DNA from: a virus | Taxonomy: Duplodnaviria; Caudoviricetes | Virus record (IMG/VR): IMGVR_UViG_3300032330_000150 | Coordinates: 1-26,828 of that record | Length of the DNA: 26,828 nucleotides | Strand: one strand, 5' to 3' | Shown here: in pieces, positions 1,559 to 4,251 of the stretch | Numbering within the stretch: position 1 is the stretch's first letter | How the letters are laid out: each line of letters begins with the position of its first letter | Position numbers and translations under genes: made by a program | Notes under the pieces: generated by a model | What the model was told of the DNA's origin: nothing | What the model saw: the letters and a program-made list of their open reading frames with translations, nothing else | The model's database searches: none

Positions 1559-1598
1559 AAAAAAAGCCAGACAATGCGTGGTAGAGCAAAGCTGGCTT
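1559..1598 (-). terminator. Intrinsic terminator/attenuator immediately upstream of the initiator ATG
   Basis: AAGCCAG...CTGGCTT stem (1598-1564) running into a U7 tract on the minus strand, about 10 nt before ATG 1549. Confidence 0.7.
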
Positions 1599-1651
1599 CG
1601 GTTTTTTAAACCATTAAAATAACCCAAGTGCTACCACCCGCTTGGCTTATT
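1559..1651 (-). ncRNA. Putative structured leader RNA with three hairpins and complementary loops
   Basis: Hairpin 1 (1651-1618, loop GGUGGUAG), hairpin 2 (1612-1600), hairpin 3 (1598-1564, loop UCUACCAC). The loops of 1 and 3 are complementary over 7 nt. Confidence 0.6.
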
Positions 1652-1656
1652 GTATT

Positions 1657-1687
1657 ACAATATACTAATCCTCTATTAACTTCACAA
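1657..1687 (-). promoter_or_regulatory. Bacteroidetes-type sigma promoter, variant -7 box
   Basis: TATATTGT (1664-1657) resembles TAnnTTTG, with TTG 20 nt upstream. It overlaps the inverted repeat TATTGTA-T-TACAATA (1648-1662). Confidence 0.5.
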
Positions 1688-4123: not shown

Positions 4124-4173
4124 AAGAAGATTCTAAATAAAAAAACTTTTTTAAATATTTTTTATCAATCAAC

Positions 4174-4205
4174 AAAAAAGGACATCAGTAAAACCGACAT
4201 CCTTT
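4174..4205 (-). terminator. Intrinsic terminator
   Basis: AAAGGAUGUCGGU-UUU-ACUGAUGUCCUUU stem (G.U pairs work only on the minus strand) ending in a U6 tract. Confidence 0.8.
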
Positions 4206-4241
4206 CCTTTTAACTAAACCTATTATCACTATGAAAACTCT
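4174..4241 (-). ncRNA. Putative approx. 65-nt antisense small RNA
   Basis: Lies between a perfect TATATTTG box and a terminator. Its 5' half is complementary to the start region of the gene at 4072. Confidence 0.55.
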
Positions 4242-4243
4242 TA

Positions 4244-4251
4244 CAAATATA
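4244..4251 (-). promoter_or_regulatory. Bacteroidetes -7 promoter element
   Basis: TATATTTG is an exact TAnnTTTG match directly after the stop codon at 4252; TTG lies 23 nt upstream (4277-4275). Confidence 0.65.

Follow-up and report, generated by a model that had tools for sequence, protein, structure and literature searches.

The window, the whole stretch of DNA that was analysed (26,828 nt), is a 26.8-kb virus record in which nearly all genes lie on the minus strand. A minus-strand leader of about 95 nt heads the predicted replication operon of this uncultured phage. The first gene behind the leader (881-1549, minus) encodes a 222-aa protein with a Lin1244_N/DUF4373-like N-terminus, likely the replication initiator. 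Matches were borderline, PF14297 being found at E 3.4e-5 with 24.9 bits, just short of the cut-off of 25, and phrog_2562, replication initiation protein, at E 3.1e-5; homologues of the protein exceed the Pfam cut-off. The structural model was poor (pLDDT 58.7) and gave no Foldseek match, and a wide structure search produced weak winged-helix matches with Z up to 5.5. Two 19-nt A-rich direct repeats inside the gene (1129-1171, minus) are iteron-like and constitute a candidate origin, lambda-type origins being located inside the initiator gene. A 256-aa gene (178-948, minus) overlaps the end of the initiator gene and occupies the helicase-loader slot. It is conserved behind the initiator in most loci, and its product had no Pfam and no Foldseek match. 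At locus L096 this slot is occupied by a DnaB-like helicase, again behind a homologous leader. Upstream of the leader is an 89-aa gene (1665-1934, minus; phrog_13625), a usual but dispensable neighbour. It was rejected as a dedicated regulator because no match to it was found in L019, L029, L060, L061 and L062, all of which carry the leader. A weak HTH gene lies at 3-188.

The sequence-only reading had described a 115-nt gap before the initiator gene, containing a promoter-like box, three hairpins and a terminal run of seven U. These features were recovered on the minus strand. The gap extends from a stop at 1665 to the AUG at 1549 (115 nt), the box TATATTGT is present at 1664-1657, and hairpins P1, P2 and P3 occupy 1651-1618, 1612-1600 and 1598-1564. 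The two 8-nt loops are at 1638-1631 (P1) and 1585-1578 (P3), and the loop-1 heptamer GUGGUAG (1631-1637) and the terminator-loop heptamer CUACCAC (1578-1584) are exact complements, as had been claimed. Seven U follow at 1565-1559. The distance from the U-tract to the AUG, given earlier as 10 nt, was corrected to 9 nt. P1 (1618-1651, minus) has 12 paired columns, a conserved purine-purine mismatch and the 8-nt loop. P2 (1600-1612, minus) is a small linker hairpin, GGUU...AACC, present in the minimum-energy fold and visible in most alignment rows; its conservation is partly the result of selection, since the AACC arm was part of the search patterns. P3 with its U7 (1559-1598, minus) is a predicted intrinsic terminator with a 7-pair base stem, an internal loop, a 3-pair upper stem and an 8-nt loop.

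A Bacteroidota sigma-A-type promoter was predicted at 1657-1687 (minus). It consists of the TTG at 1685-1687, which we take to be the upstream element, a 20-nt spacer and the -7 box. In Flavobacterium, a -7 box variant TAnnTTGY is placed at -12 to -5 (PMC9723704, as far as the text available extends). The window box fits this variant, and transcription is therefore predicted to start at about 1652 (1652-1651). A host phylum of Bacteroidota was inferred from the type of the box.

Relatives were collected by searching viral contigs with the 222-aa protein, which yielded 151 relatives, of which 80 were kept. Scanning was done with a covariance model built without the loop-loop pairs. This recovered the leader family in the window and in 54 of the 80 kept initiator-homologue loci, with scores of 66-108 bits. 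Leaders of like design but unrelated sequence are present in another 23 of the 80. Twenty-one of these are near-identical loci (among L050-L077) with loops AUGGUAC/GUACCAU, and L045 and L048 carry two further ones, unrelated in sequence and with complementary loops. In all of them the 7-nt loops are fully complementary and lie 110-130 nt before the initiator. Among the 26 loci unmatched by the model, two were without upstream DNA and one (L070) had no such leader. In additional pattern scans with unconstrained loops the same leader family was found before other initiator types. These were HTH_36 proteins, another Lin1244_N group and a protein with a DnaB-like helicase behind it. At least three initiator types are preceded by the leader, which opens the replication module regardless of the initiator family found there. 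Where HNH or other genes are inserted before the initiator, the leader remains with its promoter and precedes the inserted gene. An automatic leader caller was crude, making no call in 18 of 98 loci and a wrong call in 2 of 45 leaders, and family counts were taken from the other analyses.

A mirror-image family (L455-L473), added by a search with an HTH_36 initiator (23 loci), lies about 120 nt before the initiator. Its first loop has CUCAC-type words, the GUGAG-type words being at the apex of a long terminator. It has an 8-nt complement and at least four codes. Some code words are common to this and the main family but occupy the opposite loops; on the reading that the released RNA is a repressor acting in trans, this would hint at cross-talk between co-infecting phages. 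In all leader families seen, one kissing strand begins 5'-GU and its partner ends AC-3', with words picked by eye; these ends may be a structural rule of the kiss. HNH-type genes (Pfam-confirmed in L001 and L024) and other small genes were seen inserted directly behind the U-tract, taking the start-codon position (L001, L024, L037, L463, L464), and this slot looks like an insertion hot spot. Four unrelated contigs (L409, L421, L424, L433) have a similar small hairpin and terminator with no first-loop complement; these 24-bit matches are look-alikes without a kiss. In GTDB genomes the terminator pattern gave 120 loci, and none of the 100 that were model-scanned gave a family-level match (best 35.5 bits against 70-108 for members). 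None of five Bacteroidota genomes matched, a sample too small to show absence from prophages.

G002 and G003 (L445-L448) are complete 33-kb relatives in which all called genes are on one strand. Genes for DNA methyltransferases and a glycosyltransferase precede the terminase, and nothing matching a polymerase, helicase, integrase or repressor was found. At E 1e-5, none of 98 script-chosen ORFs of two complete relatives matched an integrase or repressor, many of these ORFs being without any match. A separate unit was noticed in the window at 4170-4251 (minus), behind a phosphoesterase-like gene. There the roughly 75 nt behind a -7 box contain an anti-start-codon word (UUUCAUAG...GGUUUA) and a hairpin resembling a terminator, both of which are conserved in five of five genomes (the window and G001-G004). 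The unit may encode a small RNA directed at translation starts, or alternatively be the start of a short opposite-strand gene; its best duplexes with phage gene starts pointed to no single conserved target.

Fifty distinct leaders were aligned. The -7 box lies 4-7 nt 5' of P1 in 48 of them (28 TAnnTTTG, 14 TAnnTTG, 6 TAnnTTTH), and the spacing from U-tract to AUG is 14-20 nt in 49, whatever gene comes next. An ATG occurs inside the leader in 7 of 50; in the window it opens a 2-codon frame. The alignment rows were picked partly on complementarity and many are near-copies. Applied to the protein-selected and specific-pattern loci, the complementarity filter removed only a truncated member and an unrelated terminator. 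The kissing helix was paired in 350 of 350 cells. Three of its seven pairs are changed on both sides, in 27, 17 and 6 rows; the other four are invariant and hence uninformative. At least eight compensatory changes were counted in this helix. Each full-length homologue examined thus preserves the loop complementarity seen in the window, compensatory changes maintaining it, and the loss of complementarity that the sequence-only reading had named as refuting was not observed. All 48 distinct full-length model matches in two later alignments paired 7/7, among them 12 of 12 held-out leaders absent from the first set; the count of 48 omits two truncated matches and four weak 24-bit matches without loop 1. 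In P1, two-sided change was found in 10 of 12 pairs, with 98.5% of cells paired; in P3 it was found in 5 of 12 pairs. The P1 mismatch was G-G in 41, A-G in 8 and U-G in 1 of the 50. None of the shuffled or slid controls came near the observed covariation. By this comparative measure the leader is a real, strongly covarying RNA element.

Six loop codes were found: GUAGGAG (23 leaders), GUGAGAG (16), GUGGUAG (5), GUCGGAG (4), GUCAGAG (1) and GUCGUAG (1). Steps of one base pair connect them. A tree from which the loop columns were excluded (80 columns, with many unresolved forks) requires 5 switches between codes. The three variable kissing columns change 5, 2 and 1 times on this tree, and their partner columns likewise 5, 2 and 1 times. 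One complete relative is 87-94% identical to the window over most of the genome; its leader is 71% identical and has another code with the same fold, and the replication region around the leader is also more diverged (about 70-85%). Against the initiator tree the codes reassort, with 17 changes where 5 would be possible and a shuffled mean of 24. Nine locus pairs have identical Rep residues 1-110 and different heptamers. The heptamer-to-heptamer spacing is 43-48 nt in 50 of 50 leaders and 40-49 nt in 11 unrelated-sequence leaders, a constancy that speaks for pairing in cis. From the second heptamer to the U-tract that follows it the distance is 9-12 nt in all 50 leaders and 16-21 nt in other families.

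Folding of the transcript from 1651 gave a minimum-energy structure of exactly three hairpins (-29.8 kcal/mol), with both heptamers in closed loops. A loop-loop complement of at least 7 nt arose in 11 of 3000 dinucleotide shuffles of the window leader. The sense strand of the 129-nt stretch folded no better than shuffles (z -1.55), whereas the antisense strand folded better than shuffles (z -3.25), and strand was for this reason settled by comparison and not by single-sequence energy. In stem columns, G-U occurred in 101 cells (11 columns) versus 11 cells (2 columns) for A-C. This excess, of which two columns supply 78 of the 101 G-U, favours the sense strand as the RNA. The energy of P3 was -14.4 kcal/mol in the window, and the median over 50 leaders was -15.3 kcal/mol. 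Pair probability of the P3 base stem exceeded 0.9 in 47 of 50 leaders, meaning that the terminator is formed at equilibrium. P3 was absent from the output of a simple terminator scan, whose rule permits a loop of 3-8 nt only. An extension of the kissing duplex into the terminator stem had also been suggested; it was peculiar to the window sequence and not conserved, and one extra pair only, a U-A in 27 of 50 leaders, recurs beyond the 7-bp kiss. The window leader is the single one of 50 in which a long 'rod' fold lies within 2 kcal/mol of the optimum. For prefixes cut off at the second heptamer, and provided that P1 could melt, the rod was the favoured form in 40 of 50. As a conserved form, the extended rod antiterminator was rejected, because in full-length leaders it is less stable than the best fold by a median of 7.9 kcal/mol.

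The catalogue of Fremin et al. 2023 (PMC10690425) contains, in the parts available, four anonymous RNA candidates before DUF4373 genes; DNAVirus_4859, _704 and _187 are the candidates nearest to the leader. DNAVirus_4859 is listed there as 106 nt long, from 40 mostly freshwater phage sequences, and no more than 25 nt from genes of the HTH_36, Phage_rep_O and DUF4373 types. In the same portions it has one covarying pair and no terminator call, and is not discussed in the main text. The leader family may be DNAVirus_4859, catalogued without kiss or terminator; length, habitat and gene types agree. No match for the initiator protein or the leader was found in an annotated phage collection. A search of sequencing runs brought up no RNA run with the leader, which weighs neither way. 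A literature search, with subscription journals mostly outside its reach, found no description of the leader. In the parts available of PMC2864571, PMC5737381 and the preprint 10.64898/2026.09.22.753630 the leader is not mentioned. A search of Rfam 15, which the sequence-only reading had proposed, gave no family at gathering score; five chance hits appeared at E 5-10, none of them guanidine. The C4 and c4-2 Rfam models had no match to the leader. Judged from its sequence, the leader appears to be a variant of the kissing-loop attenuator type.

An analogy had been drawn with the plasmid rep genes of IncI and pT181. This fits loosely: a consensus scan found no conserved antisense promoter (a box in 12 of 50, at scattered distances), and there was no conserved leader ORF. 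Available sections of PMC8383071 describe IncI-alpha/IncB repZ, in which a pseudoknot formed in cis switches expression on unless a competing RNA blocks it, and the attenuators of pT181 and pIP501; in these an RNA structure gates the initiator gene, as is predicted for the leader and its likely initiator. The leader differs in having no conserved antisense promoter, leader peptide or Shine-Dalgarno hairpin, and control is apparently exerted at the phage terminator. The guanidine-IV riboswitch is the closer structural precedent. There a kiss between the 5' hairpin and the terminator competes with closure and raises read-through in a narrow transcription window (PMC11611296, PMC9788692, in the parts available). 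Guanidine-IV (mepA) and Gd4v, as presented in these parts, have two hairpins, a loop-loop pseudoknot and a 3' hairpin that is the terminator, like the leader, in which pairing of the 5' hairpin loop with the terminator loop is indicated by covariation. Unlike guanidine-IV, the pairing code of the leader varies between phages, unrelated leaders occur in the same slot and no ligand is suggested. The downstream genes also differ, being initiators, HNH and small genes and not a guanidine exporter, GNAT or MATE. Sense-strand leader RNAs of the kind of P4 CI and Gifsy-1 IsrK, to which the c4 RNA of P1 also belongs, form a further comparison. P4 CI RNA (seqA/seqB/seqC) and IsrK resemble the leader in being sense-strand RNAs with internal complementarity and premature termination before phage replication or control genes, and their short form can act on its own long transcript (PMC4825925, text available in part); P1 c4 is a table row in the available part of PMC2864571. 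The leader differs from CI and c4 in its length of about 95 nt with one 7-nt seed pair, versus a processed RNA with two targets (seqA and seqC), and in its complete relatives without integrase or repressor match. The analogy with immunity RNAs is therefore a loose one as well.

From these comparisons the leader likely sets whether transcription continues into the replication genes, and we infer an RNA switch that would control the level of the initiator. The reading we favour, with somewhat better than even confidence and partly by analogy, is that the leader acts as a co-transcriptional attenuator in which loop-loop pairing in cis lets polymerase read through the terminator, the paired form being the on state. 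P3 by itself already makes a strong terminator, and a conserved additional pairing is therefore more readily understood as working against termination. Against this reading, the terminator is the form found at equilibrium in 47 of 50 leaders, and the second heptamer sits in the P3 loop and not in the stem; there would thus be no strand competition with the terminator, and any block must be steric or kinetic. Host polymerase would start at about 1652, and P1 would fold first. With a polymerase footprint of about 14 nt, the second heptamer, 9-12 nt plus the U-tract behind the RNA 3' end, would be just outside polymerase during the U-tract pause. If the P1 loop captures this heptamer first, the resulting pseudoknot would hinder closure of the terminator stem, and read-through would allow transcription of the initiator, the partner gene and the iteron-like repeats. 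Otherwise P3 would close and an RNA of about 95 nt would be released. The race between capture and closure would then set the dose and timing of the initiator. Elongation speed is the simplest candidate for an input that shifts the race, and the released RNA would be the most interesting one.

That released RNA gives rise to a sub-case of the attenuator reading, which we regard as possible but doubtful. The RNA of about 95 nt, or a cut terminator half, would act in trans, its CUACCAC loop blocking loop 1 of new transcripts, with the result that replication would be repressed in a code-specific way and phages of the same code excluded, as by P4 CI RNA or a sense-strand version of an Inc RNA. 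Six codes in strict Watson-Crick pairing without wobble fit such a role, as does their free reassortment relative to the initiator tree, with 17 changes when as few as 5 would be enough. A promoter-terminator unit must also release a short RNA at each termination, and precedents exist in IsrK acting on its own read-through mRNA and CI RNA acting on seqA/seqC (PMC4825925, available part). However, the released molecule has both loops and could self-pair, and the fixed spacing points to cis. The two complete relatives (98 ORFs) gave no integrase or repressor match, hence no evident lysogeny that would need immunity, and no second leader copy was found in the window or in four whole relatives. 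Five GTGGTAG copies in the window (about 1 expected) were rejected as trans targets, since three are Gly-Gly-Ser codons and are equally frequent in phages of other codes; the extra heptamer copies are thus codon-level. In a specific form that we hold only tentatively and consider rather unlikely, repression would come from the released RNA, whose terminator loop would compete in trans against the kiss formed in cis; this widespread control would be protein-free and ligand-free, and the 7-nt code would be an incompatibility type swapped independently of the initiator. It is similarly unlikely, in our view, that the kiss forms in the finished short RNA or aids termination, either compacting and stabilising a small RNA with a function of its own or locking the off state until a factor of phage or host breaks the kiss. 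The closed loops of the minimum-energy fold and the covariation of both stems agree with this, and helix geometry suggests that intact-stem pairing would fit the 17-21-nt linker if P2 or the weak P1 base opens. At a median of -15.3 kcal/mol, though, the terminator needs no such help; the 14-20-nt distance from U-tract to AUG, kept in 49 of 50 whatever gene follows, is in keeping with a 5' leader that regulates in cis, and no protein partner is fixed beside the leader.

A ligand-sensing riboswitch of guanidine-IV architecture with another ligand is improbable. In its favour are the matching two-hairpin layout with a pseudoknot on the terminator, the invariant loop ends GU...AG and the invariant G at the P1 mismatch; against this stand the outcome of the Rfam search, in which even a threshold of E 10 brought only chance hits, downstream genes for replication and HNH proteins and not for metabolism, and the interchange of unrelated-sequence leaders in the slot. 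Plasmid-type counter-transcript control at loop 1, in the style of pT181 or Inc plasmids, is given still less weight. The hairpins also fold on the antisense strand and the target would be an initiator gene, but a consensus scan found an opposite-strand -7 box within 150 nt in 12 of 50 leaders, at scattered distances, and none in the window. The G-U pairs favour the sense strand, and antisense control needs no complementarity within one strand. Least probable of all is that the heptamers are inverted DNA operator half-sites for a phage protein and the hairpins incidental. Inverted 7-mers at a fixed spacing of 43-48 bp would also covary if one protein read both. Yet the flanking stems covary with strand-specific wobble pairs, the heptamers are exactly in loops, and no neighbour gene tracks the leader. 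The nine locus pairs with identical Rep N-domains and different codes argue that the leader is not a Rep operator.

On the co-transcriptional attenuator reading, the leader would be a control element of under 100 nt that can be read from sequence, with six natural codes separated by single base-pair steps. Whether it acts in cis or in trans, in which direction, and with what code specificity are directly testable with oligonucleotides and one polymerase. Because the design recurs in unrelated sequence, family-based searches such as Rfam miss it. If the leader is a ligand-free guanidine-IV architecture, it would represent a riboswitch scaffold put to another use and may provide orthogonal RNA switches for Bacteroidota. 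For small, apparently non-integrating phages, the timing and dosing of an initiator without an evident repressor have been little studied outside lambda-type models, and it is to this aspect of their biology that the leader would speak.
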